From UHGV virus genome UHGV-1639282: a stretch of 16,370 bases of DNA. One strand, written 5' to 3'. Position 1 is the first letter of the stretch. Each line of letters begins with the position of its first letter. Position numbers and translations under genes: made by a program. This document shows, piece by piece, positions 1 through 16,370 of this stretch. The notes below the pieces were generated by a model that worked only from the letters and a program-made list of their open reading frames with translations, made no database searches and had not been told where the DNA came from. Source of the DNA: a virus.

Positions 1-1116
1 CTCACATAAAACCCTATTATCTCTATATTGTTCATTTTTTTCTTTTATTATATTTAGAATATTGCTTTCAGAAGAAACATAACCGTTCTTAAGGTAAAAA
101 TCTATATCATCATCGAAAGCACTTTCTGCTCGTTCATAAATAACATCAAGGCTATTAACAAATGAATATACAGAGTTAACTTCTTCCTTTTCATCTTTAT
201 CATCTAACATATAGTCGAATGCATGTATATTTTTGATTGACTCCTTAAATGAAGCATAATCAACGTTAGGAACACCAAAATAGTAAACCACTGAAAATAA
301 GACCAATCTATTAATAAAACTTTCTCTAACCTTATCCTCTGCTAACTTTAGCACATCTCTAAATATAACTAGAGATGATTTTATTTTATTTAATATTCTA
401 ATGTTTTTGATGTTTAAATCATTTACTAGGTTTTTTAACAAAAGAAAATCAGGGTCAGTCTCATAAAAAACTTTTCTTAAGTTTTTCTCAGGCGTGGGAT
501 CGTATTTTATTTCCACATCAATTATTTTTTCTCTATACTCTAAAAACTGTTGTTGTGCAGTTTCTTCATGTAAGTTATCTTCATTTAATATTAGAACAAC
601 CTTGCAATTTTTTCTTCTTGCCAACTCATCAATTACCCCCATAATCTCTTTAATTTCTAGCGCACTACCTTTTCGTTCAATATCATCAATGCAAACCAAA
701 TAATTATTAACAAATTTATACTCAAGAGATGACAGCAGATTATCAGTTTTGAACCCAAAAAAATCGTTCTTTCCAAAATGTATTAAAAATTTTGACAAGG
801 AGTTGTATTTCAACCATCCCCAAAACCCATTTCTATAACGAATCATAGTTCGATCCGTTTCAGATAAAATCAGTTCTTTATATTTCTTTTCATTAATTGG
901 TGTGGCACAATGATAAAGAGCTTTTTTAATGTCTCCAATAGAATTTATTCCAAACAAAGAAACATATGAATATGCATTATAATCTAATTTTTTAGAATGT
1001 TTAGTATAAAAGCTATTCCAATAATGCGTTTTACCTACTCCCCAATTTCCTTTTATGACAGCAACCCGATGATCTGAGTCCAAAAAATTTTTTAAAAATA
1101 CTTCTATCGATTCCAT
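1..1116 (-). CDS. KAP-family P-loop NTPase, 5' partial (ATG at 1116-1114; ORF runs off the window start, at least 372 codons)
   Basis: I scanned all 372 minus-strand codons from 1116 to 1 and found no in-frame stop; the upstream in-frame stop is at 1123-1125. The supplied ORF track does not list this ORF. Translation starts MESIEVFLKNFLDSDHRVAVIKGNWGVGKTHYW. GNWGVGKT (nt 1027-1050) is the Trp-containing Walker A typical of KAP NTPases, and LVCIDDIERK at residues 139-148 fits the KAP Walker B. SD-like AAGGA lies ~12 nt upstream of the ATG. The region is much more AT-rich than its neighbours. Confidence 0.6.
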   Translation of the reverse strand, partial: MESIEVFLKNFLDSDHRVAVIKGNWGVGKTHYWNSFYTKHSKKLDYNAYSYVSLFGINSIGDIKKALYHCATPINEKKYKELILSETDRTMIRYRNGFWGWLKYNSLSKFLIHFGKNDFFGFKTDNLLSSLEYKFVNNYLVCIDDIERKGSALEIKEIMGVIDELARRKNCKVVLILNEDNLHEETAQQQFLEYREKIIDVEIKYDPTPEKNLRKVFYETDPDFLLLKNLVNDLNIKNIRILNKIKSSLVIFRDVLKLAEDKVRESFINRLVLFSVVYYFGVPNVDYASFKESIKNIHAFDYMLDDKDEKEEVNSVYSFVNSLDVIYERAESAFDDDIDFYLKNGYVSSESNILNIIKEKNEQYRDNRVLCE

Positions 1117-1137
1117 TGGTGTCTATCCTTCAACTCA

Positions 1138-1166
1138 TATATTGGGCGTAACAAACGCCCAATATA
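1138..1166. other. Perfect 11-bp inverted repeat with 7-nt spacer (TATATTGGGCG-TAACAAA-CGCCCAATATA) between the small ORF stop and the KAP NTPase start
   Basis: Read directly from the sequence. It sits 1 nt after the stop codon at 1168-1170 and exactly at the AT-rich/GC-normal boundary. There is no U-tract on the minus-strand side, so it is not a canonical terminator for the genes here. It may be a protein-binding palindrome or an RNA stem-loop. Confidence 0.4.
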
Positions 1167-1167
1167 A

Positions 1168-1527
1168 TCACCCTTTCTTCATCAACTCGCGTTTAATTTC
1201 ATCGGTACGCATCGTGACATCGGCAGCTGTGATCGCCTCGTTAAGTTTCACGATGTCCTCGATTTCCTGCGGTGTCTTCTCCGCAAGATGGAAAATAGCA
1301 GCACGAATCACATCAGAGCGGGTGAATTTCTCGAAGCGAGGGATGAACTTCATCATCTCCAGCAGTTCGAAGTATTCGTCCTCCAGTGACATTGTGCGGC
1401 TTTTAATTTTCTCTTTGCCACGAGTCGGGCGTCCCTGTGGTCTGACTGGTTGGCGCAAAGGAGTTGTGTTCTTAGCCGGTGCATCAGGCTCTTTGCGCTT
1501 TGCTAGGTCACCCATTTTCATGGACAT
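1168..1527 (-). CDS. Small basic protein (119 aa), possible ParG-like partner of the ParA-like ATPase
   Basis: Start ATG overlaps the upstream gene's stop (TAATG at 1525-1529). The N-terminal ~45 residues are Lys/Arg/Pro-rich and look disordered (KRKEPDAPAKNTTPLRQPVRPQGRPTRGKEKIKSR). The C-terminal part (KFTRSDVIRAAIFHLAEK) looks like a strand-helix unit. The function is inferred from gene context only. Confidence 0.45.
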   Translation of the reverse strand: MSMKMGDLAKRKEPDAPAKNTTPLRQPVRPQGRPTRGKEKIKSRTMSLEDEYFELLEMMKFIPRFEKFTRSDVIRAAIFHLAEKTPQEIEDIVKLNEAITAADVTMRTDEIKRELMKKG

Positions 1528-2195
1528 TATTCTTCTTCCTCCAGACTCAACAGATAATCTACAAATTCTTCAAACTCGGCTTCCGCCTTTTTGTCGCGCT
1601 CGCTACCGGTCATTTCAAAGATAGAACGACCAGACTCTTCCGCATCATCATAGACGTTGCGGTTATATAGATTGACTGGCGCAGACTCGATGCCAAACGT
1701 CTCAACAATCTCTTTAGCCGCCAAAATGCGAGACACTTGTGATGGCAAAGCCGGGCACTGGTTCATGACCGCGCGGACCTTCACTTTATCGTTCACATTA
1801 CGAACATTGTCGATAATAGGATCGATGTCACGCAGAGATTTCAAATCACGACGCTTAGGACGAAGCGGGATAATGATAACGTCGGCCATCAGCATCGCTT
1901 GTCGCTGAATTTCGGAGTCAAAGCCACCAGCATCTACCACTACATACTCAGCTCTACCCTGAAGCGATTTTAGGTGCTTAATGATGTCATCCTGAACGTA
2001 TGCAAAAGGAATCAGCTCAAGGTCTTCGTTCTGTCGACGGTCTTCACACCAGCTTGTTGTCGTGCGCTGAATATCTATATCAGTGATATAAACCTTCTTC
2101 TTCTTTTTGACTTTCAGGCAAACGGCAATTTGCTGGGCAACAGTGGATTTGCCAGGCCCGCCCTTTGTGCCGCCAACCACAAAGATCTTGGTCAT
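1527..2195 (-). CDS. ParA/Soj/MinD-family ATPase with deviant Walker A (222 aa)
   Basis: N-terminus MTKIFVVGGTKGGPGKSTVAQQIA contains the deviant Walker A KGGxGK[ST]. A VVVDAGG motif follows, and the size matches small type-Ib partition ATPases. The protein ends in an acidic tail (LSLEEEE). ATG at 2195-2193 with AAGGGA ~9 nt upstream. Confidence 0.8.
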   Translation of the reverse strand: MTKIFVVGGTKGGPGKSTVAQQIAVCLKVKKKKKVYITDIDIQRTTTSWCEDRRQNEDLELIPFAYVQDDIIKHLKSLQGRAEYVVVDAGGFDSEIQRQAMLMADVIIIPLRPKRRDLKSLRDIDPIIDNVRNVNDKVKVRAVMNQCPALPSQVSRILAAKEIVETFGIESAPVNLYNRNVYDDAEESGRSIFEMTGSERDKKAEAEFEEFVDYLLSLEEEE

Positions 2196-2341
2196 TGGAG
2201 AGTTCCCTTTGCGTATATAATTATCGTCTGAAACAACTTGTTTTCTTATATGTGATATAGCCTAAATGCCTACGGCTGCGGTGTAAAGGTTATTTAGTAG
2301 GTTGTTATTGCCTATTGCTAGTAACTGTTTTCATTTGTCTG

Positions 2342-2370
2342 TTGAAAAAAGTGACAATCATCTCTATATT
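2342..2370 (+). promoter_or_regulatory. Candidate sigma70 promoter TTGAAA-N17-TATATT, directed toward ataR
   Basis: Hexamers at 2342-2347 and 2365-2370 with a 17-bp spacer, each 5/6 match to consensus. The predicted start site falls on the dyad at 2375-2393. It lies ~145 bp upstream of the ataR ATG. Sequence pattern only. Confidence 0.3.
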
Positions 2371-2374
2371 ACGA

Positions 2375-2393
2375 GTACGGTAAATTGCCGTAC
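2375..2393. promoter_or_regulatory. Dyad symmetry GTACGG-N7-CCGTAC, candidate operator
   Basis: Inverted hexamers read directly from the sequence, positioned at the predicted +1 of the candidate promoter in the divergent region between the ParA-like gene and ataR. Confidence 0.3.
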
Positions 2394-2417
2394 ACAATTT
2401 GATGACACATACGCAAT

Positions 2418-2504
2418 GGGCTATAGCCCAGTTAAATAACCTTTGAGTCGAAAACTCAGTTTAAATAGAGAGCAATGATGGCCTTCCTACATCACCGGCC
2501 ATCA
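2418..2504. promoter_or_regulatory. Cluster of dyad symmetries in the ataR leader: GGGCTATAGCCC (2418-2429), TGAGT-N5-ACTCA (2444-2458), TGATGGCC-N13-GGCCATCA (2476-2504)
   Basis: A perfect 12-bp palindrome and two inverted repeats read directly from the sequence. The last one ends at the ataR Shine-Dalgarno (AGGGGG, 2505-2510). Type II antitoxin/TA complexes commonly autoregulate by binding palindromes in their own promoter region. Confidence 0.3.
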
Positions 2505-2514
2505 GGGGGTACAC

Positions 2515-2784
2515 ATGTCCGCACTGAAAAAGCAGCGCATCGATTTGAGATTAACCGATGACGATAAAAGCATCATCGAGGAAGCTGCCGCAATGTCTAA
2601 CCAGAGCATTACCCAGTTCATGGTTAGCAGTGCATCCGAACGTGCCGTGAAGGTGATAGAGCAACACCGTAGACTGGTTCTAAGTGAAGAGTCCTGGAAT
2701 CTGGTTATGGACGCTATAAGCAATCCTCCGGCACCGAACGACAAGCTGAAACGAGCTGCCAATCGTCTGAAAAGCATGGAGTAA
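2515..2784 (+). CDS. ataR: DUF1778-type RHH antitoxin (AtaR/TacA family)
   Basis: 89 aa: MSALKKQRIDLRLTDDDKSIIEEAAAMSNQSITQFMVSSASERAVKVIEQHRRLVLSEESW. It closely resembles AtaR/TacA sequences as I recall them, and it sits 7 nt upstream of a GNAT toxin gene. ATG with AGGGGG SD. Confidence 0.88.
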   Translation: MSALKKQRIDLRLTDDDKSIIEEAAAMSNQSITQFMVSSASERAVKVIEQHRRLVLSEESWNLVMDAISNPPAPNDKLKRAANRLKSME

Positions 2785-2791
2785 TTTACTC

Positions 2792-3313
2792 GTGAGCAAT
2801 ACGACGATCGAGATTTTCTCTGGAGAGAACGATTATGATCTAAACGGTTTTGATTGCGGCGAAGAGTCACTAAACGCATTTTTGACCAACCACTTAAAAA
2901 GACAGCATGAAGGAAAAATTCTTCGCGCTTATGTGCTTTGCACTAAAGAAGAAATACCAAAGGTATTAGGTTATTACACTTTGTCAGGCAGCTGCTTTGA
3001 GAAAGAAACCTTACCTTCAAAGAGTCAGCAAAAGAAAGTGCCTTATCGGAATGTCCCAAGTATCACTTTAGGCAGACTGGCTTTGGACAAATCTCTTCAA
3101 GGTCATGGGCTTGGCTCAATGCTTGTAACACATGCAATGCGCGTTGTGTACAATGCATCTCTTGCTGTAGGCATTCATGGACTTTTCGTTGAGGCGTTAA
3201 ATGACAAAGCCAAGGCGTTTTATAAAAGTTTAGGCTTTATCCAGCTGGTTGGTAACAACGAGCGTTCTTTGTTCTATCCTACAAAATCTATCGAAAAATT
3301 GTTCGAAGAATAA
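2792..3313 (+). CDS. ataT: GNAT-family acetyltransferase toxin (AtaT/TacT family, aminoacyl-tRNA acetylating)
   Basis: 173 aa, GTG start with GGAG upstream. Contains the GNAT core LQGHGLGSMLVTHAMRVVYNASLAVGIHGLFVEALNDKAKAFYKSLGF and the N-terminal DYDLNGFDCGEESLNAFL segment typical of AtaT/TacT. Classic antitoxin-then-toxin order. Confidence 0.88.
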   Translation: MSNTTIEIFSGENDYDLNGFDCGEESLNAFLTNHLKRQHEGKILRAYVLCTKEEIPKVLGYYTLSGSCFEKETLPSKSQQKKVPYRNVPSITLGRLALDKSLQGHGLGSMLVTHAMRVVYNASLAVGIHGLFVEALNDKAKAFYKSLGFIQLVGNNERSLFYPTKSIEKLFEE

Positions 3314-3316
3314 TGT

Positions 3317-3338
3317 GTTCCCCTCATTTGAGGGGAAC
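3317..3338. terminator. GC-rich hairpin (GTTCCCCTCA-TT-TGAGGGGAAC) between convergent ataT and o-spanin stops
   Basis: 10-bp perfect inverted repeat, 4 nt after the ataT stop (3311-3313) and 8 nt before the o-spanin stop (3346-3348). Flanking T-runs are short on both sides, so efficiency is uncertain. Plausibly a bidirectional terminator. Confidence 0.45.
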
Positions 3339-3345
3339 TTCGACA

Positions 3346-3561
3346 TCACCAACCACAAACCCTCTCTCCCATCGTATTGTGAAAAAGGATTTGGCGTTCG
3401 GTTTCTTCAGTCATTACATCATTATTGCTGATATAGATAGGCTCAGCCCCATCGCAGAACAACACGCTGGCTGTTTGTGGTTTAATGACGCACCCACTTA
3501 TCATACAACTCACGATGAACGGCAGAAGCATCTTTCTGACGTATTTTACTGCTCGTCTCAT
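3346..3561 (-). CDS. Putative o-spanin (Rz1-like outer-membrane lipoprotein), overlapped architecture
   Basis: N-terminus MRRAVKYVRKMLLPFIVSCMISGC has a basic n-region, a hydrophobic core and a lipobox-like ISGC. It is a short protein with additional Cys residues. It starts inside the 3' part of the i-spanin gene in another frame and extends beyond it. Confidence 0.5.
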   Translation of the reverse strand: MRRAVKYVRKMLLPFIVSCMISGCVIKPQTASVLFCDGAEPIYISNNDVMTEETERQILFHNTMGERVCGW

Positions 3562-3733
3562 TCACCACTTTCACTGTGTTTTGAAGTCGTTTTCTGTCTT
3601 CCTGTTTTGCCTTCTCTTCCATTGCTCGTCGCGCCGCATTCCCGCCCATCGTGTAAGCGCCGACAAGAACGAAAAGAACGGCAGCCAGCGTAATCAAAGC
3701 AACTTTTAGCTTTGTCATCAGGCTGCCTAGCAT
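3482..3733 (-). CDS. Putative i-spanin (Rz-like): N-terminal TM helix plus charged helical periplasmic domain
   Basis: 83 aa with TM segment LKVALITLAAVLFVLVGAYTM followed by a charged helical region (RRAMEEKAKQEDRKRLQ). The ATG is 1 nt after the stop of the upstream hydrolase-like gene. It is short for an Rz protein, so the call is tentative. Confidence 0.5.
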   Translation of the reverse strand: MLGSLMTKLKVALITLAAVLFVLVGAYTMGGNAARRAMEEKAKQEDRKRLQNTVKVVNETSSKIRQKDASAVHRELYDKWVRH

Positions 3734-3734
3734 A

Positions 3735-4427
3735 TTAGACCATCCCTTTCTGGTGTTTTCTTACCTGCGACCAGGCAATGAATCCTGCCACAACAATAGT
3801 GGCAATACCGAAGATGATGCGTACTGTATCCCCGCTAGAGATATGACCTTGTGCTTTATCCATAGCAGCGGAAACCTGCGGCATAACATCGGCCAGCTGA
3901 GCCAGACCAATACCTGCTGTAACAGTTGCGCCTGCGGTTTCTTTAGTTACAGGAACAGCCTTCACGGTTTTCACCGGCTTAACAACGCCAGCTCGACGCA
4001 GACCTTCCTCAATAACTTCTGCCGCATACCAGGTGTTCAGCGTTTTTAGCGGGCCTCGGCCATTCTCGTGGCGAATGATTGCCTCAACCAAAGGTCGAAG
4101 GATGTCGTAATCATGCAGATCGATGATCATGTCTGCGGTTACACCAACGGCTTTAGACACCTCATTAATGTAGGCGTCAGTATTGTTTTCATTCGGCGGT
4201 GCCCAGCGTTCAATAACTTCACGAATGGTATCGATACTTGTGCCGTCTTTTGCGCGACGTTTATCGTGGTAGGTAATTAGAGTCACCGCCAGCGCACGAA
4301 TCCCCCAAACAGGGTCTTTAAACGTGCAAAAGCGCGGTTCGTCTGGATTCGCAACCAGACCTTGCCACGGTGATCCTTTATCAAGATTACCGGGGTTATT
4401 ATTACGAATGCCTCTCGGGGTCTTCAT
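3735..4427 (-). CDS. Putative endolysin-like protein with C-terminal transmembrane anchor (230 aa from ATG 4427; the ORF track's 4454 start is GTG)
   Basis: Starts MKTPRGIRNNNPGNL with a strong SD (CAGGAGA) 8-9 nt upstream of the ATG at 4427-4425. The C-terminus has a Lys/Val/Thr-rich linker and a hydrophobic helix IIFGIATIVVAGFIAWS. The N-terminal motif is reminiscent of phage lytic-enzyme families, but I cannot confirm the family without a search. The lysis role is inferred mainly from the adjacent spanin pair. Confidence 0.45.
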   Translation of the reverse strand: MKTPRGIRNNNPGNLDKGSPWQGLVANPDEPRFCTFKDPVWGIRALAVTLITYHDKRRAKDGTSIDTIREVIERWAPPNENNTDAYINEVSKAVGVTADMIIDLHDYDILRPLVEAIIRHENGRGPLKTLNTWYAAEVIEEGLRRAGVVKPVKTVKAVPVTKETAGATVTAGIGLAQLADVMPQVSAAMDKAQGHISSGDTVRIIFGIATIVVAGFIAWSQVRKHQKGMV

Positions 4428-4440
4428 CCTTGATCTCCTG

Positions 4441-4764
4441 TTATTGCAGTCCACTTTTTACGCCATACGCGGCTAACCCCAAAAGCAGTGCGGTAATAAT
4501 GAACGACGTTATTTTAGAAACAATGCCGCCAAAGAACCCACTTGAGATGGAATCTAACCGGTTAAGGAGTTTGTCCAGATTGGAGTGTTGAATACTATGT
4601 TGCGCCGGGGTCATATCACCAAAGTAGGTTTTCAGCTGATCATTGACCTCCTGGCCAATTTCTTCACGTAGCTCTTTACCTAATTTGCCAACAACCTCCC
4701 GAGCAACGATCGCGGCAATACGCTCAACTTGCTCTGTTGTAACGCCCGCCATCTCGTTCGACAT
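4441..4764 (-). CDS. Small membrane protein, possible holin or lysis regulator (107 aa from the ATG at 4764, which has a GGAGGA SD)
   Basis: The ORF track starts at 4776, but the in-frame ATG at 4764-4762 has GGAGGA 6 nt upstream. There is a soluble ~85-aa N-terminal region and a single C-terminal TM helix (ITSFIITALLLGLAAYGV). Its position immediately upstream of the hydrolase-like gene suggests a holin role, but the topology is atypical. Confidence 0.4.
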   Translation of the reverse strand: MSNEMAGVTTEQVERIAAIVAREVVGKLGKELREEIGQEVNDQLKTYFGDMTPAQHSIQHSNLDKLLNRLDSISSGFFGGIVSKITSFIITALLLGLAAYGVKSGLQ

Positions 4765-5086
4765 GTTTTCCTCCATGAAAAGTCAAATCGGGATGGCGGA
4801 TTTATATCACATTTCACCCTTTTGTTGTAGGTGTGTACTTACCTATCATTCAGCATTGCAACCGATTGATGAGAAAGCACCTACTCCAACCCATCGCCAG
4901 TTATAGATGCTACACGCTTTGTATAAGGTATAGTCGTTCACTTTTTTAACAGCATATATGGGTATGACTGTCTCCTGTCCACCAATGATAGCTTCACCAT
5001 AACATATAGGTGTCGGCAATTTCTGGCAGCCAGTAAGAGAGAGAACAACAGCTATTGTTAGAAATAATCTTTACATCATTTACTCA

Positions 5087-5695
5087 TCAGTTATACAGAT
5101 TTCTATTTATTACCGGTACTCTGCCATTTACGCTAAAACTATGGCCGCCATTAAGTTGGTTTACGAATATCGAGCTAACAGTATTTCCATATGCCGCATA
5201 TCCATAAACCATTGTCATGGCTCCGCCCGGTACTGGAACAGCGGACACATTCGCATATGTTGGGATTATCGCTGGAGGGTAATCAAAAACATGCTCTCCA
5301 GAGCTGTTCCACTCCGTATTATTAAGAAAGGTAAATGAAAGTGGGATATTTGCCGTATTATAGATTTCCTCCCCTTGTGCATTGAAAAAACTCATGCCCC
5401 AAGTTTCTTTTTTGGCTATACCTTTCGAAAATACGTATATCGTGGCACTAGAGTCGCTACCCCGACCTCCGAAACTGTAAATCACCTGGTTGTTACGCAC
5501 TATTCTGTTGGCTATTAATGAAACAGCTTTCGAATAGACAACAAAAATAATCGGTGAACGATCTGGAGATATTTTGGTGTTAAACTCTGTCCCGCCGGAC
5601 AAAGAAACAACCTGCTTTCTCTGAAAAACGATAGGAGACAAAGAAGGAGACATCCAGACCTTCCCGTCAGATCGATATATCTTGCTTCCGTACAT
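5087..5695 (-). CDS. Hypothetical protein (202 aa), Ser/Gly/Asn/Tyr-rich, no signal peptide recognised
   Basis: Complete ORF with ATG at 5695-5693 overlapping the stop of the upstream ORF (TAATG). Composition suggests a beta-rich fold. No family recognised. GC looks somewhat lower than the tail genes. Confidence 0.55.
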   Translation of the reverse strand: MYGSKIYRSDGKVWMSPSLSPIVFQRKQVVSLSGGTEFNTKISPDRSPIIFVVYSKAVSLIANRIVRNNQVIYSFGGRGSDSSATIYVFSKGIAKKETWGMSFFNAQGEEIYNTANIPLSFTFLNNTEWNSSGEHVFDYPPAIIPTYANVSAVPVPGGAMTMVYGYAAYGNTVSSIFVNQLNGGHSFSVNGRVPVINRNLYN

Positions 5696-5949
5696 TATTT
5701 TTGAAAAACCAATATGTTTAAATTACCACTAGCTCCAGACCACGAAATGGTATTTCCAGAAACCGTAAGACTTGTGTACTTTCCATTGGTTACGTCCATT
5801 ATGTAATAGTCGATTCCCAATCCCGCCTCAACCTCATATGTTCTACTTCCTGAACCAGAGGGAGTAAAATAATCGAGGTAATAAACAGGGGCCAACGCAT
5901 TGACCATCTCCTGTCTTGATGGCGACCAAACCTGTGCACCATAGCTCAT
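5695..5949 (-). CDS. Hypothetical protein (84 aa), translationally coupled to the downstream 202-aa ORF
   Basis: ATG at 5949-5947 preceded by AAGGA. The stop TAA overlaps the next start by one base. No recognisable motifs. Confidence 0.5.
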   Translation of the reverse strand: MSYGAQVWSPSRQEMVNALAPVYYLDYFTPSGSGSRTYEVEAGLGIDYYIMDVTNGKYTSLTVSGNTISWSGASGNLNILVFQK

Positions 5950-6086
5950 AAATATATCCTTATACTTTTAAGCAGGGGCTGGTTTAGCTCCATCCCCGAT
6001 TGAAGTTGTTTATTCTTTAGGTGAATTTAACTTCGTTTCAAGCTCCTCAACCCTTTTGGTCAATTGCTGAATATGATGCATGAGAC

Positions 6087-6116
6087 AAGGCCCGCTATCG
6101 GGCCTTAATTTTTATT
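6087..6116 (+). terminator. Intrinsic-terminator-like hairpin AAGGCCCG-CTAT-CGGGCCTT followed by AATTTTTATT (T-tract on the plus strand)
   Basis: Perfect 8-bp GC-rich stem with 4-nt loop and a downstream T-run on the plus strand. It lies immediately beyond the tfa stop (6112-6114). On the minus strand it has an A-tract before it and no U-tract after, so it is best oriented to stop plus-strand (antisense) transcription, or it acts as a weak bidirectional terminator. Confidence 0.4.
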
Positions 6117-6639
6117 CAGGCTTTTGTGGCCATTCAGGATTTGCCGTATCCACACGGCTGACCAGAACACTGTAGCGTTCCCATGCTTCCAGTCGTGTGC
6201 GCTCCTCGTCTGTTGCCATATTCAGCCTGACAGCGCGTTCCAGCGGCTGGATGACTGATTCAGCTTCGGAAAGCAATGCGGCCTTTTGTGATTCGGCCTG
6301 TTGTTGTTGCTCGTCTGCCGTATAAATCCGTTTAACCACAGCTCCGTCCCTGAACATCCATTTACCCGAAATATCAGCCCGGCGATTTGCTGTAATGTCA
6401 GCAACCTCAACCACACTTAAACCTTCTGGATTTATTGTAGATACGTCTTTATTTATAGCCACAATAATTCCATCTGATGTGTAAGCAATTTTTATAGTGT
6501 CATCCTGGAAGTTCTTTTGTTCCTCATACCAGTTTTTACCGTCTTCAGAATACAACCAGACAACACCAAATTGTCGCGTCAATTCATATTGTTCAACAGT
6601 TTTTGGATTACCTGATCTGATGTTTTTTAAATGCTGCAT
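6112..6639 (-). CDS. tfa: Tail fiber assembly protein (Tfa-like chaperone)
   Basis: 175 aa. C-terminal region [25 protein letters not shown] matches the conserved end of lambda-type Tfa proteins as I recall them. Its start is 2 nt after the side tail fiber stop. Confidence 0.82.
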
Positions 6640-6641
6640 AA

Positions 6642-9600: not shown

Positions 9601-11297
9601 GTCACCCTGGATGCTAATTCACTGCTGAATCCAGAAGAACGACGAATAACCACAGGGTAAAACTTACCAGCTTCAACTCCTGCGGGCGCATTCACTGTTG
9701 AATACTTCATTCCTCGTTTAGCGGCCATATCAGTCTTGCTGGCAGCATTAATGTTGCTCAGGAAGCGGCCCTTGTCTGGGATATCAGCGCCATTCTGATT
9801 CTTCGCCAATCGGCTATTCGCATTGTCATTGGCTGCTTTTACTGCCTTTGGCGTTGCCGCCAGCGTTTCAGACGTGCTGTTGGTCGCACTGCTGAGCTGT
9901 ACTATCCCCTTTTTCGTCGTGCTCGCATCCTCAAGCGCCACAGCGGATGCAATATCCTCTGCCCGTTTTGCCGCTGTCTCGGCGCGCGTTGCCGCGGATT
10001 CTGCCGTACTTTTGCTCTGTGCTGCCGCCGTCGCACTGCCAGCTGCCTCTGTCGCCTTCGTGGATGCCGTCGTGGCGCTGCCCTTCGCTGCTGACGCTTG
10101 TCTGGTCGCCTCATCTTTTGAAGCAGACGCAGATGATGCCGATGACGCCGCCGAACTGGCTGACGATGCGGCAGCCGTTTTTGAGGATTCTGCGCTGGTT
10201 TCCGACGCTTTCGCGTTCGTTTCGGATGTCTTCGCTGCGGAAGCAGACCTCGCTGCTGCGCTGGCCTGTTCAGTGGCTTCGCCAGCCTTCGTTGTGGCTG
10301 TTGAAGCAGACGATGCGGCGCTTTCTGCCGATTTTCCGGCGGCGGTGGCACTGGCTGAGGCCTGCCCGGCACTTGTTGACGCGGCACTGGCAGACGACGC
10401 AGCCGCTGTTTTTGAGCCTGCCGCAGCTGAGGCGCTCTGTCCCGCTGCCGTCTCAGAAGACTTAGCGTTCGTCTCGGACGTTTTTGCCGCCTTCGCGGAA
10501 TTTGCTGCCGCCGTTGCCGAGGAAGCTGCGCTACTGGCGCTCAAGGATGCGTTCGTTTCTGATGATTTCGCTGCCTCTTTTGAGGCCGCCGCATCCCGGG
10601 CTGAGGTGGCAGCTTCTGACGCTTTCGTGGTCGCGGTGGATGCAGAAGTGGCTGCTGATTGTTGTGACGCTGCGGCATTCGTTTCAGATTTTTTCGCAGC
10701 AGTTGCACTCGCACTTGCGGCACTTTGTGAGGATGCCGCATCGGATGCACTTTGAGACGCTTGAGAGGCTTTTTCTCCAGCGGTATTGGCGCTTTCTGCT
10801 GCTGCGGCAGCACTGGCCGCCGCCTCACGAGCTTTGTCGCCAGCAGCATCAATCGCGTCAGTGTTATTTTTATACCACTCAACGTTTTCGTTGTGCTCGT
10901 TGACGATCTGCATTAGCGGCTTAACGGTTACTTCTGTACCGTCTTCACGCTCGATTGTCACCTCATCCAGCGCAGTCAACCAACTGCGCATGGACTTGGA
11001 ATCAGCCGACATACGCGACATTAGCGCAGTAAAGCGCGCGCTAAACTGTGTTAAGTCGCCTTCATAGGTCGTAATGATTCGGCACGGAACCTCAGACTGA
11101 GTTTCGCCGGTATAAGGTTCTGAGAGAACAATGTTCGTATCACTGGTTACGCGCTTGATCTCATACAGCTTATTGTCGGGGCCAATGACGATCATCCCCG
11201 GCAACACACCATTAGCTGTTACGTTCCAGGCTGTCCCTGCCCCAACCAGAGTATTGCTACCCTGTGTAAATGTGATAGTACCTTCCCTGTACCACAT
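6642..11297 (-). CDS. Side tail fiber protein (Stf-like), 1551 aa, mosaic
   Basis: ATG with AAGGAG 8 nt upstream. Long Ala/Ser/Thr-rich shaft containing [24 protein letters not shown] and [42 protein letters not shown], which I recall as near-identical to lambda Stf. Phage tail fibre repeats ([29 protein letters not shown]) in four copies. Duplicated distal modules, followed by tfa. Confidence 0.9.
7590..7945 (-). repeat. Three tandem ~120-bp coding repeats (phage tail fibre repeat, ~40 aa each) inside stf; a fourth isolated copy near 8880-8960
   Basis: Protein repeats [40 protein letters not shown] x3 with matching DNA periodicity visible at 7600-7940. The isolated copy reads [29 protein letters not shown]. 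Boundaries are approximate. Confidence 0.6.
9950..10850 (-). repeat. Low-complexity GC-rich (GCN-codon) Ala/Ser/Thr-rich shaft-coding region of stf
   Basis: About 300 aa dominated by A/S/T with recurring KTSETNA/SASAA motifs. Its lack of stops in several frames produces the long spurious overlapping ORFs on both strands in the supplied track. Boundaries are approximate. Confidence 0.6.
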
Positions 11298-11317
11298 GTT
11301 GAATATGCTCCTTGATT

Positions 11318-11340
11318 TGGCGGGTTATCCTTGCCCGCCA
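11318..11340. other. Hairpin TGGCGGG-N9-CCCGCCA in the J-stf intergenic region, just upstream of the stf RBS
   Basis: 7-bp GC stem read directly from the sequence. A T-rich tract follows on the plus side (11341-11390). On the minus strand it directly precedes the stf Shine-Dalgarno. Confidence 0.3.
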
Positions 11341-11390
11341 TTAAGTAAATACTTACCTATTTTTACCGATATAAAAATTTTTTTCCACCA

Positions 11391-14300
11391 TCACAGACGG
11401 CCAATTCTTACTCGTAGGACGTTGTTATCGTCATAAACGTCAATCCGCTGACCATTTATAACCAATCGCCCATTGCCGCCGCTATTACCGTTGATCTCAA
11501 GCGTTCCATTTTTGCCGAACCGCCATCCAGATCTACCGCTAACAAAATTGGTAGATTGCAGATCGCCTACTTTTGCATTGGTGATTGTGCCATCCTTGAT
11601 ATACGCTCCATTCATATAGGCGATACTGTTTTCGATAACAAATGGCGTTGTGATCTTCCCGTTAACAGAGTTGACCAAACCAAACCTGTCCGCCTGAACC
11701 AAAAACTGAGATAGCCCAGTGGTGTCAATACCAAGCGCAATACCGGCAACATACTTCTGCCCTCCGCTCGTTGAAGTCTCCATTTTCAACGTCCACGCGG
11801 TTGATACTTTTTTGTTGGTATCAGCAATAGCTGTTGCCTGCTGTTGAATTGTCGCGGTATTTCCATCCACCTCTGCTTTCAGAGTATCGATTCGCCCACT
11901 CAGAGCATTATCTGCCTGCGTTCTCGCTGTCGTTTCAGTTGTTACCGCCGCGGAAATGTTGGCTGCCGTTTGAGACTCTAAGTTTGTGATTTGAGTCGCC
12001 AATGCAGCATCTTGCTCTGTACGCGTTTTCGTTTCGGTTGCTACAGCCGCTTTAATATCCTCTTTGTATTGAGAGGTCAGCTTGGTGATCTGAGACGACA
12101 ACGCCGAGTCAGCATCAGTTCGAGCCTGCGTTTCAACTGCAACGGCCGCACTAATATCTTTCGCTGTCTGTGCTTTTAAACTTGAAACCTCTTTTGTTAA
12201 AGCGGTATCACCATCTGCACGAGCCGTTGTTTCTCTGGCAAGAGACGCCTCGAGATCATTAGCTTTTGCTGTAAGAGACGTAATCTGGGTAGACAATGCA
12301 CTATCGGCATCAGTCCTTGCTTTTGTCTCTACAGCAACCGCTGCGGCAATATCAGTTCCGGTTTGTGCTCGCAGGCTGTTAATTTCTCGTGAGAGCGCCT
12401 GGTCAGCACTTGCTCTGGCCTCCTGCTCCTGAGTGATGGCAGCGGATATATCACCGTCAACCTTTGACTGAAGCTGGTTTATTTGTTTGGCTAACGCAGA
12501 GTCCCCGCTTGCTCGGGCCTCCTGCTCACTACGTATTGCAGCAGAAATATCATCATCAACCTTTGCCTGAAGTTGGGTGATCTGGCTTGCCAGAGCCGAA
12601 TCTTCCGTTGCTCGGGCTTCTTGCTCTTCCTTAATAGCTGCGACGATATCGTTGCTTACTTTCGACTCAAGCTGAGTGATCTGTGTCGTCAGAGCTTCAT
12701 CGGCAGATGTACGAGCCTCCTGCTCTGTACTAATCGCCGCGCTGATATCTCCTTCAAACTTAGATTGCAGCTGAGTGACACGCTTTGCCAACGCTTCATC
12801 GCCATCGGCACGAGCGGTGGACTCTTCCAGAATACTGGCCTTAATGTCTTCGCCAATTTCTACGCGAATTTCCTCAACCTTCGTGGCCATTGCAGACATA
12901 TCATCAGCAAAGGTTTTCTGTGTTGTTGCGATCTTCGCGTTATTGACCATCTGCTTGTGCTGGTCTTCATCTTGACGAAGAGCCAGGTCAATATTTGTTT
13001 TGGCTAACGCCTCAATGTTCGTAGTCAGTTCTGCACTGGTACGATCGACCTCTGCAACCGTCTTTTTCATTTCTTCAACGGCAGCGGAGCTTTCCTCTAC
13101 CGTTGACTGCAACACTTCCAGTTGTTTAGCGTTTGCAGCATCGCCTTCAACACGAGCCTCGCTTTCCTTAGCAATAAGAGCCGCCGCTTCATCTCTTGCA
13201 GCCTTTATTGCCTCGACTGTATTAGCGAGAGCTTTATCGTGTTCAGATACGGTGTTTTCGATTTCAACAATTGCAGCATCAGTAGCATCAATTTTTTCAA
13301 ACGCTTCATTGACCTTGTCGATCGTTGCCGAAACCTCACCTTTAAGCTCGGTTTGTGCGTTCTCCAAAGCATCGCTACGCTCGTTGAATTTTATTTCAAA
13401 ATCCGCGAGGTTATCGCTGAACTGCTTATCTAATTCAGCTATATCTTCCTTAACGTCGTTTACCGCCCCCTCCAAAGATTCGACGCTCTGGTTGATATGC
13501 TCATTTAACTCGTCAACTGCTTCTTGAGAGGCTTTGCTGTTGATGTCCTCAAGCAGAGCCTGACCAAGCTCGGAAGATGTAATTTTGCCAGTCAGGAACG
13601 ACAGTACATCGCGAGTTGTCGCCTCTGTACCCAAGTTTGAGTTCGGAGGACTTAACATACCTCGCTTGTTCGATGCTCGAACCCAGTAATACCACGTTTC
13701 GCTATCCCCAAGACCAGCATGTGTAAAGGTGGTGCTTGCAGACTCTGCGATCAGTTTCGCCGTATCCAGATTGTTGGTCTGGGATGCGTAAACATTAATG
13801 TGATCAAGGTCTACCGAATCTGGATTAACCCAATTCAGTATCACATTACGATAGTCTCCAACGGCCGTTAATGACGTTGGGGAATCCGGCGGTGTCATTG
13901 TGCCCAACACCTGATAAACGGCACTGATAATCTCTGTTTTTTTACCGTTGAATGAAACCGCATACAGCTGGAAGTCGTAGCGTCCATTCTCCGCGACATT
14001 AACGATTTCGTATTGCTCTTCGGTTACACGCGCCGATTGCCAGTTCGATACATTGTTTTCATCAGAACGTCGCCAACTGATCCAATACTCTGGAGATTTC
14101 CCTTCCCATGTTGCAGTCAGTTTTACTGACAGGTTGCCCGGGCTTGAGAGATAAGTCCCTTCAGTGATTTGCAGATTAGATGGCTTGGAGTAAGTTGGGT
14201 CCAATACCGTCGTATTCTGCGGGATCAGCGTTGCACCATTGTCGATTGCCTCATATTTAGACGGATTGTTCTCAACAGCGGTGATGTCAAAGCTACCCGG

Positions 14301-16118
14301 CGTTTCCCCCTGCGCGATGTTAACGATGCGAACGCGCATAGGTTCGAGGTCTGGTTCTGTAATAGTCCAGACGCCGTTCAAAACAGGCGTTTCAGCCGAA
14401 GACAGGGCTTTTGAAAACGTAACTTTTGTTATATTTTCGCCAGTTTCAAGAACATCGCGTTCAACGATTTTGCCTTCCTGATTCAGTATTCGAATAAAGC
14501 AGCCGCCTTTGGCTAACGACACAGGCGCATCGAGTGTGACGCTGTTTTTGGTAAACGCCACAATTCGACCTGAGTTACGTTTGCCTGCGCGATATTTGTT
14601 CTGAATCAGAACGGTTTCACCAGGCATCAGAAATGACGCGTCTAAGCCGGCAGTAAATGTAATTACATCCGACTCCATTCTGGCGGTATATAAAAGCCAC
14701 AAACCAACTCGGTGAGCCTGCCCTCGGCTTGTACAGCCAAATGCTACGACTTCTGTTTTACGCTCACCATAACGGCGCATTGCGTCCTGATCTTCGACGT
14801 ACTCGATGTTTTGCTTATAACCGTCCTCCTTGTTGTTGTAGGTTACGAGCGCAACGGATGGGCGATCTTTACGCGCAGAACCTTTATAGGTAAACAATCC
14901 ATCTTTGACGTTAGAGTTGGTAAACATCATTACCGGATCTGATGGGCTATCCTGCATGATGTTAACCATCCCACCAGCCCAAAACACCATGCCGCGGAAT
15001 GCTCCGGCAATATCCTGAATTAGCCGGTATGCGTCCTGTCGACTGGTGATCTGTGTATTGATTGCAAAGCGTTTCTCTTTGCCACCAAAGCCATCATCGA
15101 CCTCTTCGTCACAATATCGACCAATCTGGTACAACTGGCCAAGGTCAATCATAGATTCCGACACATACTGACCAAGGCCATATCGAGCATTGGTCAGCAA
15201 ATCAAAGAGAATCCACGCGGGGTTCGAAGAAGACAACAGCTTAAAAGTGCCATCCCATACACCATCATAAGTGTTGCTGGCCTCGTTGTAGTTTGACGGC
15301 ACGCGAATTTTTAATCCACGTACCAAATACGAACGAGATGGCATGGTGCTACCAAACTGCTCAGAATTAACCTTCAGACCCACCAGCACAGAGTTTGGGT
15401 AGTTCATCGGTGTATCTACAATCTCACCTATTGAGTCCACCCATGTATCGTTATAGAGATACTGGCTGCTGTTATCATCGGTAATACGGACCACACGAAC
15501 CTTGTATGCTCGTCCAGGCTTAGGCAGCTTCAGCTCATAGCTACGGTAATAAACGCCGGTCTTCTTTGCTGTTAGCTTAATGCCAACGCTTTTTTCACCT
15601 TCAGCGACCACATCTACAAATGTTGAGTCGCCATTTGCTATCTGGAACTTGTACTCAACAGTCGTACCGTTCGTGTCACCAGTTTTTTTATCTATGCTTC
15701 GCAAAGAAGGAAACTTCATGATGACACGAACCCGATCAGCTTCATCGTTATCGATTGAAACCGTTACATAATGTGTTTTTTTTAACTGGATATTGACGGA
15801 TTTAGGCGTTTCAACGAAATCAAAGCCAGACATTGGAGTCTGGTCTTGTGAACCGTCGCGAAAATCCCATGTGATTCCGCTGAAGTTGGAGGAACCGTCT
15901 TCATTTACAATCGGCAGATCGTCGATAAAAATAGATCTTGCGCCATTTACTAAGCCGCCAATTACCCCTTCCCCAAGAAGATCGAGGATAGCGGCCATTG
16001 CACGAGAATTTACGGTATCGTCGGCTTCAACCGGTGTACGGCTGGAGCTTTTGCTGCTTTTTTTACCACCCGCACCGGCAATAAACAGCGGTAGCTTTTT
16101 CTTCTTGAACTGTTCCAT
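11391..16118 (-). CDS. J-like tail tip / host specificity (central fiber) protein with extended coiled coil (~1575 aa from ATG 16118; the ORF track's 16124 start is TTG)
   Basis: The N-terminal ~650 aa carry lambda J-like motifs (AFGCTSRGQAHRVGLWLL, PAWILFDLLTNARYGLGQY) and the C-terminus has KYVAGIALGI...QFLVQADRFGL, also J-like. Between them is a ~600-aa alpha-helical region that includes ~10 tandem 33-aa repeats. The ATG at 16118-16116 has AAGGA upstream. Confidence 0.9.
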   Translation of the reverse strand: MEQFKKKKLPLFIAGAGGKKSSKSSSRTPVEADDTVNSRAMAAILDLLGEGVIGGLVNGARSIFIDDLPIVNEDGSSNFSGITWDFRDGSQDQTPMSGFDFVETPKSVNIQLKKTHYVTVSIDNDEADRVRVIMKFPSLRSIDKKTGDTNGTTVEYKFQIANGDSTFVDVVAEGEKSVGIKLTAKKTGVYYRSYELKLPKPGRAYKVRVVRITDDNSSQYLYNDTWVDSIGEIVDTPMNYPNSVLVGLKVNSEQFGSTMPSRSYLVRGLKIRVPSNYNEASNTYDGVWDGTFKLLSSSNPAWILFDLLTNARYGLGQYVSESMIDLGQLYQIGRYCDEEVDDGFGGKEKRFAINTQITSRQDAYRLIQDIAGAFRGMVFWAGGMVNIMQDSPSDPVMMFTNSNVKDGLFTYKGSARKDRPSVALVTYNNKEDGYKQNIEYVEDQDAMRRYGERKTEVVAFGCTSRGQAHRVGLWLLYTARMESDVITFTAGLDASFLMPGETVLIQNKYRAGKRNSGRIVAFTKNSVTLDAPVSLAKGGCFIRILNQEGKIVERDVLETGENITKVTFSKALSSAETPVLNGVWTITEPDLEPMRVRIVNIAQGETPGSFDITAVENNPSKYEAIDNGATLIPQNTTVLDPTYSKPSNLQITEGTYLSSPGNLSVKLTATWEGKSPEYWISWRRSDENNVSNWQSARVTEEQYEIVNVAENGRYDFQLYAVSFNGKKTEIISAVYQVLGTMTPPDSPTSLTAVGDYRNVILNWVNPDSVDLDHINVYASQTNNLDTAKLIAESASTTFTHAGLGDSETWYYWVRASNKRGMLSPPNSNLGTEATTRDVLSFLTGKITSSELGQALLEDINSKASQEAVDELNEHINQSVESLEGAVNDVKEDIAELDKQFSDNLADFEIKFNERSDALENAQTELKGEVSATIDKVNEAFEKIDATDAAIVEIENTVSEHDKALANTVEAIKAARDEAAALIAKESEARVEGDAANAKQLEVLQSTVEESSAAVEEMKKTVAEVDRTSAELTTNIEALAKTNIDLALRQDEDQHKQMVNNAKIATTQKTFADDMSAMATKVEEIRVEIGEDIKASILEESTARADGDEALAKRVTQLQSKFEGDISAAISTEQEARTSADEALTTQITQLESKVSNDIVAAIKEEQEARATEDSALASQITQLQAKVDDDISAAIRSEQEARASGDSALAKQINQLQSKVDGDISAAITQEQEARASADQALSREINSLRAQTGTDIAAAVAVETKARTDADSALSTQITSLTAKANDLEASLARETTARADGDTALTKEVSSLKAQTAKDISAAVAVETQARTDADSALSSQITKLTSQYKEDIKAAVATETKTRTEQDAALATQITNLESQTAANISAAVTTETTARTQADNALSGRIDTLKAEVDGNTATIQQQATAIADTNKKVSTAWTLKMETSTSGGQKYVAGIALGIDTTGLSQFLVQADRFGLVNSVNGKITTPFVIENSIAYMNGAYIKDGTITNAKVGDLQSTNFVSGRSGWRFGKNGTLEINGNSGGNGRLVINGQRIDVYDDNNVLRVRIGRL
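11870..12870 (-). repeat. About ten imperfect tandem 99-bp repeats encoding 33-aa coiled-coil units (consensus approx. DISAAIxxEQEARxxADxALxxQITQLQSKVxx) within the J-like gene
   Basis: The protein-level repeat is obvious in the translation. A DNA periodicity of ~99 bp is seen in recurring motifs such as GCTCGGGCCTCCTGCTC at ~12415, ~12513, ~12612 and ~12711. Boundaries are approximate. Confidence 0.65.
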
Positions 16119-16135
16119 GTTCAAAAAATCCTTGT

Positions 16136-16370
16136 TTACATTAGCTGGTCAATCGTGATTGAAGAACTCACAACCTGTGAGCCAACCAGAATTTCCTCGC
16201 CATAGATAAGTTGTACTGGGTTGCCCTGGTTTTCTGTATTTTGAGGGCCGTCGAAATAATAAGAGTTCGAGTTATCTGCCTGTCTCACACTTTCGTTAGT
16301 GGCTTGCGCGGATATTTTTTGTGATAGGGCGCCCATCACCATCGACACACCGCAAGGTTCTAAAGCAGAC
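16136..16370 (-). CDS. Tail assembly protein I homolog, C-terminal fragment (N-terminus beyond the window end)
   Basis: The C-terminal sequence NSNSYYFDGPQNTENQGNPVQLIYGEEILVGSQVVSSS resembles the lambda gpI C-terminus as I recall it. It lies immediately upstream of the J-like gene, as in lambda. The stop at 16136-16138 is 15 nt before the J ATG. Confidence 0.7.
   Translation of the reverse strand, partial: SALEPCGVSMVMGALSQKISAQATNESVRQADNSNSYYFDGPQNTENQGNPVQLIYGEEILVGSQVVSSSITIDQLM

Follow-up and report, generated by a model that had tools for sequence, protein, structure and literature searches.

The window, i.e., the whole 16,370-nucleotide stretch of the virus genome UHGV-1639282 analysed here, is very probably a 16.4 kb piece of an Escherichia coli phage-plasmid of the SSU5 supergroup, a temperate siphovirus of which the prophage is a low-copy circular plasmid of ∼110 kb that is not integrated. 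Its type is probably pSLy3 or SSU5_pHCM2, which are described from E. coli (85-134 kb) and Salmonella enterica (94-126 kb), respectively (PMC12977533). SSU5, which was isolated as a phage (refs 29-30 in PMC7969092), and its relatives form an established phage-plasmid supergroup, mostly IncFIB; this class comprises 130 of the 193 typed phage-plasmids, mainly members of the SSU5 supercommunity (PMC7969092). The window spans the junction at which the late virion and lysis genes pass into the plasmid-maintenance and replication region.

Read from position 16370 to position 1, the genes of the window lie on the minus strand throughout, with the exception of a toxin-antitoxin (TA) pair, as is evident from the listing and translation of the open reading frames (ORFs). 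Their order is gpI, gpJ, a side tail fibre of 1551 residues, the tail fibre assembly chaperone Tfa, two genes for proteins of 84 and 202 residues, cor, the lysis cassette, the TA pair, ParA, a gene for a protein of 119 residues and a KAP-family nucleoside triphosphatase (NTPase). A sequence-only reading of this stretch had proposed a phage-plasmid or a heavily mosaic prophage, based on the succession of tail, fibre, lysis, TA, partition-like and KAP genes; each of these items is indeed present, as judged from ORFs, Pfam and PHROG. The same reading had seen no integrase or excisionase, in agreement with a Pfam scan that reveals neither domain among the genes of the window. In addition, the window contains no tRNA genes.

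Relatives and state of the replicon

In megablast searches the window matches Escherichia phage CMS-2020a (95.7% identity, 70% of the window covered), Escherichia phage Cyrano (96.6% identity, 65% covered) and Salmonella phage SSU5 (80% identity, 42% covered), as well as hundreds of circular E. coli plasmids of ∼95-120 kb, at 94-98%. Of the plasmid records that match the window, 1098 out of 1161 are typed as non-mobilizable. Among 5,426 complete E. coli genomes, the region 1120-4800, which comprises the lysis cassette, the TA pair and the partition (par) operon, occurs 265 times, in 263 genomes, and each of these copies is on a plasmid, none on a chromosome. Two contigs of 105-110 kb match positions 1167-16368 at 99.1-99.2%, and a metagenome contig of 8.6 kb is 100% identical over positions 1-8542. 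The exact Tfa protein of the window, which is found on four contigs of 105-111 kb, and the exact 202-residue protein occur on contigs of this size with SSU5-type flanking genes.

SSU5 and Cyrano share the order J, fibre, lysis, slot, ParA, small partner, slot, DnaB helicase, primase and ligase. In both phages the region past the left end of the window contains a conserved gene for a protein of ∼246 residues, a DnaB-like helicase, a primase and a DNA ligase, and the region past its right end contains the tail genes K, L and M, the tape measure gene and the head genes. A complete relative, pGMI17-003_2 (NZ_CP031136), is circular with a length of 109,442 bp, and encodes, ∼33 kb away, a RepB-family initiator with a Rep3_N domain. 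It also encodes terminase, portal, major capsid and tape measure proteins, DNA polymerase III alpha, nrdAB, DnaB, primase, ligase and tRNAs. Cyrano (pLF82) has a copy number of 5.5 per cell, shows a 39-fold induction by ciprofloxacin in quantitative PCR and forms siphovirus particles of the expected size in transmission electron microscopy (PMC9928086). The synteny and the plasmid-only location of the relatives are direct observations, from which we infer the plasmid state of this particular copy. The SSU5-type matches, the 265 plasmid copies out of 265, the shared gene order and the circular relative with its Rep3 initiator thus uphold the proposal of a phage-plasmid.

The second proposal, a heavily mosaic prophage, holds for the mosaicism, which is confined to the tail fibre and two cargo slots, and lacks support as far as an integrated element is concerned. 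An integrated, heavily mosaic lambdoid prophage that acquired lysis, TA and ParA genes past its tail fibres would be in line with the fibre shaft and the J/fibre modules, which are 86-91% identical to those of lambdoid phages, with the tyrosine recombinase of the family, and with the many chromosomal matches of the whole window (9,038 places in the same set of genomes). These chromosomal matches must, however, fall outside the lysis-TA-par region, because the latter is never chromosomal (0 of 265). Moreover, the best whole-window matches are all plasmids of 95-120 kb or SSU5-type phages, near-identical copies are located mid-contig in contigs of 105-111 kb with SSU5-type flanks, and the window lacks an integrase, an excisionase and tRNA genes and has its lysis genes directly after the fibre. 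An integrated prophage of this kind is therefore very improbable.

The presence of cor and the position of the partition genes also recall N15, in which sopAB directly follow a lambda-like tail block and which carries cor as well. A linear N15-like phage-plasmid with hairpin telomeres would share this arrangement, but the relatives of the window are deposited as circular, no protelomerase, a gene that the sequence-only reading had suggested looking for, is found in the window or annotated across the whole record of pGMI17-003_2, the sequence identity is to SSU5-type phages and not to N15, and the replicon measures ∼110 kb as compared to 40-66 kb for the N15 type (PMC12977533). The probability of such a linear element is close to nil.

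A number of points weigh against the assignment as an SSU5-type phage-plasmid. The window itself does not contain a replication initiator. In addition, the relatives encode a tyrosine recombinase which adjoins a repressor/helix-turn-helix regulator and is annotated as 'integrase' (Pfam Phage_integrase, E 7e-10). No solved homologue of this recombinase is detectable by sequence; by analogy with Cre of phage P1, which resolves multimers, it may have a role in multimer resolution. Taken literally, the absence of an integrase would probably not hold for the complete contig, given the recombinase of the relatives, though chromosomal flanks are not seen. Since the family carries a tyrosine recombinase, an integrase is meaningful as a sign of integration only when accompanied by chromosomal flanks and attL/attR. 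Rare chromosomal capture of phage-plasmids is on record (PMC12977533).

Finally, 16 kb of ∼110 kb are visible and cor carries a nonsense codon, so that the element could be a defective derivative, i.e., a phage-plasmid that keeps SSU5-type genes and does not form infectious virions. Besides the cor pseudogene, this is suggested by relatives that are shortened (94.8 kb, 76 kb and 72 kb) or carry insertion sequences (IS) in or near this region, and by a Klebsiella SSU5-like plasmid that is reported to be phage-like with a plasmid role (PMC8969562). The virion and lysis genes of the window, on the other hand, are full-length and co-linear with those of the virion-producing Cyrano and SSU5. Cor, as known from phi80 and N15, is an accessory exclusion protein which is dispensable for virion production. 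A defective derivative is thus unlikely, albeit the least unlikely of the three alternatives.

As an SSU5-type phage-plasmid, the element belongs to a family that has already been described, and its gene order, though real and unusual, is ordinary for that family; the current understanding of the SSU5 family is not changed by the window. SSU5-type elements are found in ∼5% of the complete E. coli genomes (263 of 5,426). For annotation purposes the contig is best treated as an autonomous replicon of ∼110 kb, spreading vertically as a plasmid and by infection as a virion. Replication would proceed from the genes just left of the window, i.e., those for the 246-residue protein, the DnaB-like helicase, the primase and the ligase, together with a Rep3-type initiator elsewhere on the replicon. 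Phage-plasmids of this kind are known to carry genes for resistance and defence (PMC9600943; 10.1101/2025.09.12.675607).

The probable partition operon and its flanking cargo slots

At the plasmid-maintenance side of the window, ParA, the 119-residue gene and a leader of ∼110 nucleotides form a family backbone that lies between two cargo slots. The slot boundaries given below are observed directly as breakpoints in the comparison with relatives.

1..1166, minus strand: variable cargo slot 2 (breakpoint 1166/1167)
1..1116, minus strand: KAP-family P-loop NTPase, cut by the window start, 372 of ∼568 codons (the 5' two-thirds) (Pfam KAP_NTPase, E 3e-6)
1168..1527, minus strand: 119-residue ParA partner, putative centromere-binding adaptor (phrog_5111, a family with no assigned function)
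1527..2195, minus strand: ParA ATPase, 222 residues (Pfam AAA_31, MipZ and CbiA; PHROG ParA-like, E 2e-51)
2196..2305, minus strand: conserved leader upstream of parA, candidate promoter/operator/centromere (from conservation)
2292..3353, plus strand: variable cargo slot 1, type II TA operon with hairpin (breakpoints 2291/2292 and 3353/3354)
2515..2784, plus strand: antitoxin of the DUF1778/TacA family (Pfam TacA1, E 3.5e-26)
2792..3313, plus strand: GNAT acetyltransferase toxin (Pfam GNAT domains, E 8e-8 to 5e-5)
3317..3338, plus strand: terminator-like hairpin (slot 1)

ParA is a small protein which lacks an N-terminal DNA-binding domain and contains a deviant Walker A motif, KGGPGKS, within the sequence GGTKGGPGKST at residues 8-18. 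Its nearest solved structures are ParF of TP228 (4dzz, E 3e-10) and the ParA protein 5u1g. The NCBIfam model ParA_partition aligns to ParA over positions 6-202/203 with an E-value of 2e-33 and a score of 115 bits, which is below its cut-off of 180. The stop of parA and the start of the 119-residue gene share one base. Both genes occupy the positions of SSU5_033/034 and CYRAN_28/29, and the par region is 85.8% identical to that of SSU5, as compared to 70-78% for the other shared segments. The sequence-only reading had considered, as a finding that would speak against a phage-plasmid, that the ParA-like gene might belong to a separate cargo element. To the contrary, ParA, the 119-residue gene and the leader constitute a backbone shared with the relatives, and ParA is to be regarded as part of the element itself and not as a separate insert.

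The family of the 119-residue protein is restricted to relatives, several of which are on contigs of ∼105-150 kb. Its members have an invariant N-terminal sequence MGDLAKR, a variable basic linker and a motif resembling that of ribbon-helix-helix (RHH) proteins, SRTMS(L/I)EDE...FTRSDVIRAAI. This layout would correspond to that of ParG-type adaptors. In the Cyrano record the homologue (CYRAN_29) is labelled 'RelE/ParE putative toxin', for which no support is found in Pfam, NCBIfam or PADLOC; the toxin annotation is probably wrong, and both the position and the motifs fit a partition adaptor.

The leader upstream of parA is highly conserved. From approximately position 2295 to the ATG of parA, ∼100 nucleotides do not differ between the window, pGMI17-003_2 and Cyrano, and show only about 6 differences in SSU5, and the slot 1 breakpoint at 2291/2292 coincides with its distal edge. 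No direct-repeat family is present in the region 2150-2560 upstream of parA, which shows three short inverted repeats of uncertain meaning; promoter and terminator scans give results at background level. The leader may function as an operator, a centromere or a boundary of recombination. Our best guess is that the par operon represents a partition system similar to type Ib, with the conserved leader as its possible site of action, in which the ParF-like ParA and the 119-residue adaptor would segregate the plasmid copies at cell division.

Slot 1 contains the antitoxin gene directly upstream of the toxin gene, on the same strand and at a distance of 7 nucleotides. The toxin aligns over residues 1-172 to the solved structures 6gts, 6ajm (AtaT) and 5zgn (KacT), with E-values of 4e-78 to 1e-75, and is ∼70% identical to these solved homologues as estimated by eye from the alignment; the antitoxin matches KacA (5zgn_A) with an E-value of 2.5e-41. 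Toxins of the AtaT/KacT family acetylate charged tRNA, and thereby halt translation once the labile antitoxin is lost. In pairwise BLAST comparisons the TA segment is absent from pGMI17-003_2 and SSU5, where slot 1 contains two hypothetical genes without a Pfam or PADLOC match. The pair is found in about half of the E. coli relatives, as 139 of the 263 cover at least 80% of the region 1120-4800. A perfect inverted repeat of 12 nucleotides (2285-2296 and 2433-2444) brackets the start of the TA insert. The homologues in Cyrano are transcribed in the lysogen (PMC9928086). In the present element, the AtaR/AtaT-type pair would favour plasmid retention or act against competing phages.

Slot 2 contains the KAP NTPase gene, of which the product scores 27.1 bits in Pfam, against a cut-off of 20, and matches phrog_4740 (E 2e-126). 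In addition, the low-GC NTPase has a PADLOC match to PDC-S49, a candidate system of anti-phage defence (E 1.2e-22). The full-length protein in pGMI17-003_2 has 568 residues, and only those relatives that bear KAP share positions 1-1166 with the window. The GC content over positions 1-1000 of the window is 28% (0.281). A search for the KAP gene in the 5,426 complete E. coli genomes yields 28 places, exclusively on plasmids. Its presence in 28 of the 263 E. coli relatives, together with the GC content of 28%, suggests a recent acquisition. In other relatives slot 2 is occupied by a DUF2971 gene (PDC-S31; in Cyrano), by unknown reverse-strand genes for proteins of 352-357 or 225 residues, or by degraded KAP fragments.

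The two slots that flank the par operon are prone to recombination and carry exchangeable cargo, and both the TA pair and the KAP NTPase should be annotated as such. The combination present in the window, i.e., a backbone and fibre like those of the related locus L009, with slot 1 occupied by the TA pair and slot 2 by KAP, is not found as such elsewhere, and reflects routine modular shuffling. A more far-reaching and rather tentative proposal, which we consider possible but on balance doubtful, is that the slots are dedicated hot spots at which defence and addiction genes are swapped between replicons, with the leader acting both as the recombination boundary and as the cis site of the adaptor. 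If this were true, the KAP gene would be a defence module carried by a phage, and the 119-residue protein would define a new family of centromere-binding proteins.

Virion, lysis and fibre-linked genes

The remaining part of the window carries the virion and lysis genes, which are co-linear with SSU5_019-030, at 70-78% identity to SSU5 and 96-97% to Cyrano. The tail-tip proteins I and J, the mosaic fibre with its chaperone, and the cassette of holin, endolysin and spanins serve the lytic cycle.

16136..16370, minus strand: gpI-like tail assembly protein, 3' end, running off the window end (position of CYRAN_19 'Tail tip protein I' and SSU5_019)
11391..16124, minus strand: gpJ-like tail tip/host specificity protein (Pfam FNIII-A_GpJ, Phage-tail_3, fn3 and Phage_Tail_Tip)
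6642..11297, minus strand: mosaic side tail fibre, 1551 residues (Pfam Gp34_trimer, two stretches)
6112..6639, minus strand: tail fibre assembly chaperone, Tfa/P1 U'-like (Pfam Caudo_TAP, E 6.4e-38)
5695..5949, minus strand: 84-residue gene (phrog_557; equivalent to SSU5_023)
5087..5695, minus strand: 202-residue gene, overlapping the 84-residue gene (phrog_425; equivalent to SSU5_024)
4846..5078, minus strand: pseudogene of cor, a superinfection-exclusion lipoprotein (codon 3 is TAA)
4441..4776, minus strand: holin-like protein with a C-terminal transmembrane (TM) helix (holin annotated here in Cyrano and SSU5)
3735..4454, minus strand: endolysin, hydrophobic helix at the C-terminus (PHROG endolysin, E 6.5e-89; 7q47, a solved endolysin, E 3.9e-54)
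3482..3733, minus strand: Rz-like i-spanin (PHROG Rz-like spanin, E 7e-25)
3346..3561, minus strand: Rz1-like lipoprotein o-spanin, overlapping Rz (lipobox MISGC)

The tail fibre is the most composite of these proteins, consisting of an SSU5-type N-terminus, a high-GC, Ala/Ser-rich shaft similar to that of lambdoid side tail fibres, two Gp34_trimer domains and a C-terminus similar to P1 Sv'. The GC content of the shaft reaches 0.57-0.59 at positions 9501-11000. The shaft (∼8641-10776) is 86-91% identical to the side tail fibres of the lambdoid phages Turner, PhiR30_1 and 2H10, and the C-terminal part together with Tfa (6320-7705) is 82% identical to the alternative fibre end Sv'/U' of phage P1. 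The three-way mosaic shows that exchange has taken place between integrated prophages and two families of phage-plasmids. In pairwise BLAST comparisons the fibre varies relative to pGMI17-003_2, Cyrano and SSU5 between approximately positions 6085 and 9812, and a look-up of exact proteins returned no copy of the 1551-residue protein on record. A plus-strand ORF of 310 codons inside the fibre gene (9823-10755) is most likely an antisense artefact of the GC-rich (57-59%) repeats that code for Ala and Ser; in relatives its counterparts are annotated as hypothetical protein (L001 15496-16179; L006 5894-6577).

Outside this variable part the tail genes are well conserved: over positions 9813-16368, which include J, the window is 97.3-97.5% identical to pGMI17-003_2 and Cyrano (pairwise BLAST). 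The gpI fragment of 77 residues has no Pfam match. The gpJ-like protein comprises 1577 residues when translated from a TTG start and 1575 from the ATG that is used by the relatives. It contains a coiled-coil insertion of direct repeats of 33 residues (99 nucleotides) at positions 12378-12773, preceding the Phage_Tail_Tip domain, with the repeat motif DISAAI..EQEAR.S.D.AL..QI..LQSKV. Lambda J has 1132 residues; the protein in the window is ∼440 residues longer, with the repeat insertion as the extra part, and SSU5 J is shorter in this region.

The sequence-only reading had placed cargo between the fibre and lysis genes. This part of its interpretation has to be revised, as the 84- and 202-residue genes found there are probably not cargo, and the variable cargo is formed by the TA pair (2292-3353) and KAP (1-1166). 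The two proteins have no Pfam or PADLOC match. The 202-residue protein shows 75% amino-acid identity to its SSU5 counterpart and, in full-length alignment, 31-33% identity to proteins of virulent T1-like phages, and distant homologues occur in Stx phages as well. The conservation of both genes in SSU5 and the presence of the 202-residue protein in virulent T1-like phages make an accessory role in the fibre/host-recognition module more likely than a role as cargo.

The cor gene starts with ATG ATG TAA AGA, translated as MM*RLFLTIAVVLSLTGC, and is intact in SSU5 and in pGMI17-003_2, which has AAA at codon 3. The TAA codon recurs at 10 further loci, which come from independent assemblies and metagenomes. 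A sequencing error is ruled out by the recurrence of the same codon in these 10 loci of other samples, and the nonsense codon is an inherited marker of a sub-lineage. One assembly annotates a product of 69 residues 3' of the stop (L006 11585-11794).

At the position of the lysis cassette, the Cyrano and SSU5 records annotate holin, endolysin, Rz and Rz1. In the relatives the endolysin starts at an ATG at position 4427. The C-terminal hydrophobic helix of the endolysin is IIFGIATIVVAGFIAW, and PGAP calls the homologue a 'membrane protein'. In the protein annotated as holin, a long N-terminal part is soluble and the only TM helix is at the C-terminus. The topology of this lysis pair is unusual, in that the endolysin is anchored C-terminally rather than by an N-terminal signal-arrest-release (SAR) domain.

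Comparison with known systems

The closest likeness is to phages Cyrano and CMS-2020a, which are 95.7-97.3% identical to the window at the nucleotide level over J, the lysis genes, the TA pair, ParA and the 119-residue gene. They have the same order and orientation of genes and carry a TA pair of the AtaRT/KacAT type in the same slot. Cyrano differs from the window in having another fibre, in the absence of Tfa, the 84- and 202-residue genes and cor (window positions 4848 to ∼9812 are missing or diverged), and in the presence of DUF2971 (PDC-S31) where the window has KAP.

Plasmid pGMI17-003_2 is 99.0% identical to the window over positions 1-2291, comprising KAP, the 119-residue gene, ParA and the leader, and for the lysis genes and J the identity is 96-97.5%. 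In contrast to the window, it lacks the TA pair, has an intact cor and a shorter, different fibre without Tfa, and carries IS1 near the tail genes. Elsewhere its cargo includes dfrA51 (trimethoprim resistance), located inside the nucleotide-metabolism block, and apbC and metG, apparently of chromosomal origin, by an IS1 remnant (8581-9057, 19578-22869).

SSU5 (NC_018843), the type member of the supergroup (Pfeifer et al. 2021, PMC7969092), is more distant. It shares with the window the backbone order from I through ligase, with an adhesin/Tfa gene after the fibre, the homologues of the 84- and 202-residue proteins, Rz/Rz1 and a near-identical parA leader, whereas its nucleotide identity is 70-86%, Cor is intact, J is shorter and the fibre is different. 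In SSU5 slot 1 is occupied by two hypothetical genes and slot 2 by three other genes.

The par operon of the window resembles the type Ib system ParF-ParG of TP228 in its small ParA, for which ParF is the best solved match, and in its short, overlapping downstream partner, whose conserved N-terminal peptide, flexible basic linker and RHH-like motif would parallel those of ParG. Unlike in TP228, the 119-residue partner shows no detectable similarity to ParG in sequence or fold, and no parH-like array of short repeats is seen upstream of parA. Similarly, the TA pair is alike in full-length alignment to AtaR-AtaT from E. coli O157:H7 and KacA-KacT from Klebsiella pneumoniae, including the antitoxin-first operon. 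What sets it apart from these systems is that a phage-plasmid carries it, in a variable slot and with an orientation opposite to that of the surrounding operons.

With phage lambda the window has in common the homologues of gpI, gpJ, side tail fibre and Tfa, in a lambda-like order. In lambda the fibre genes are followed by the b region, att, int and xis, and the lysis genes S, R and Rz are located upstream of cos. In the window, by contrast, the fibres are followed by the lysis, TA and par genes, and the element is never chromosomal.

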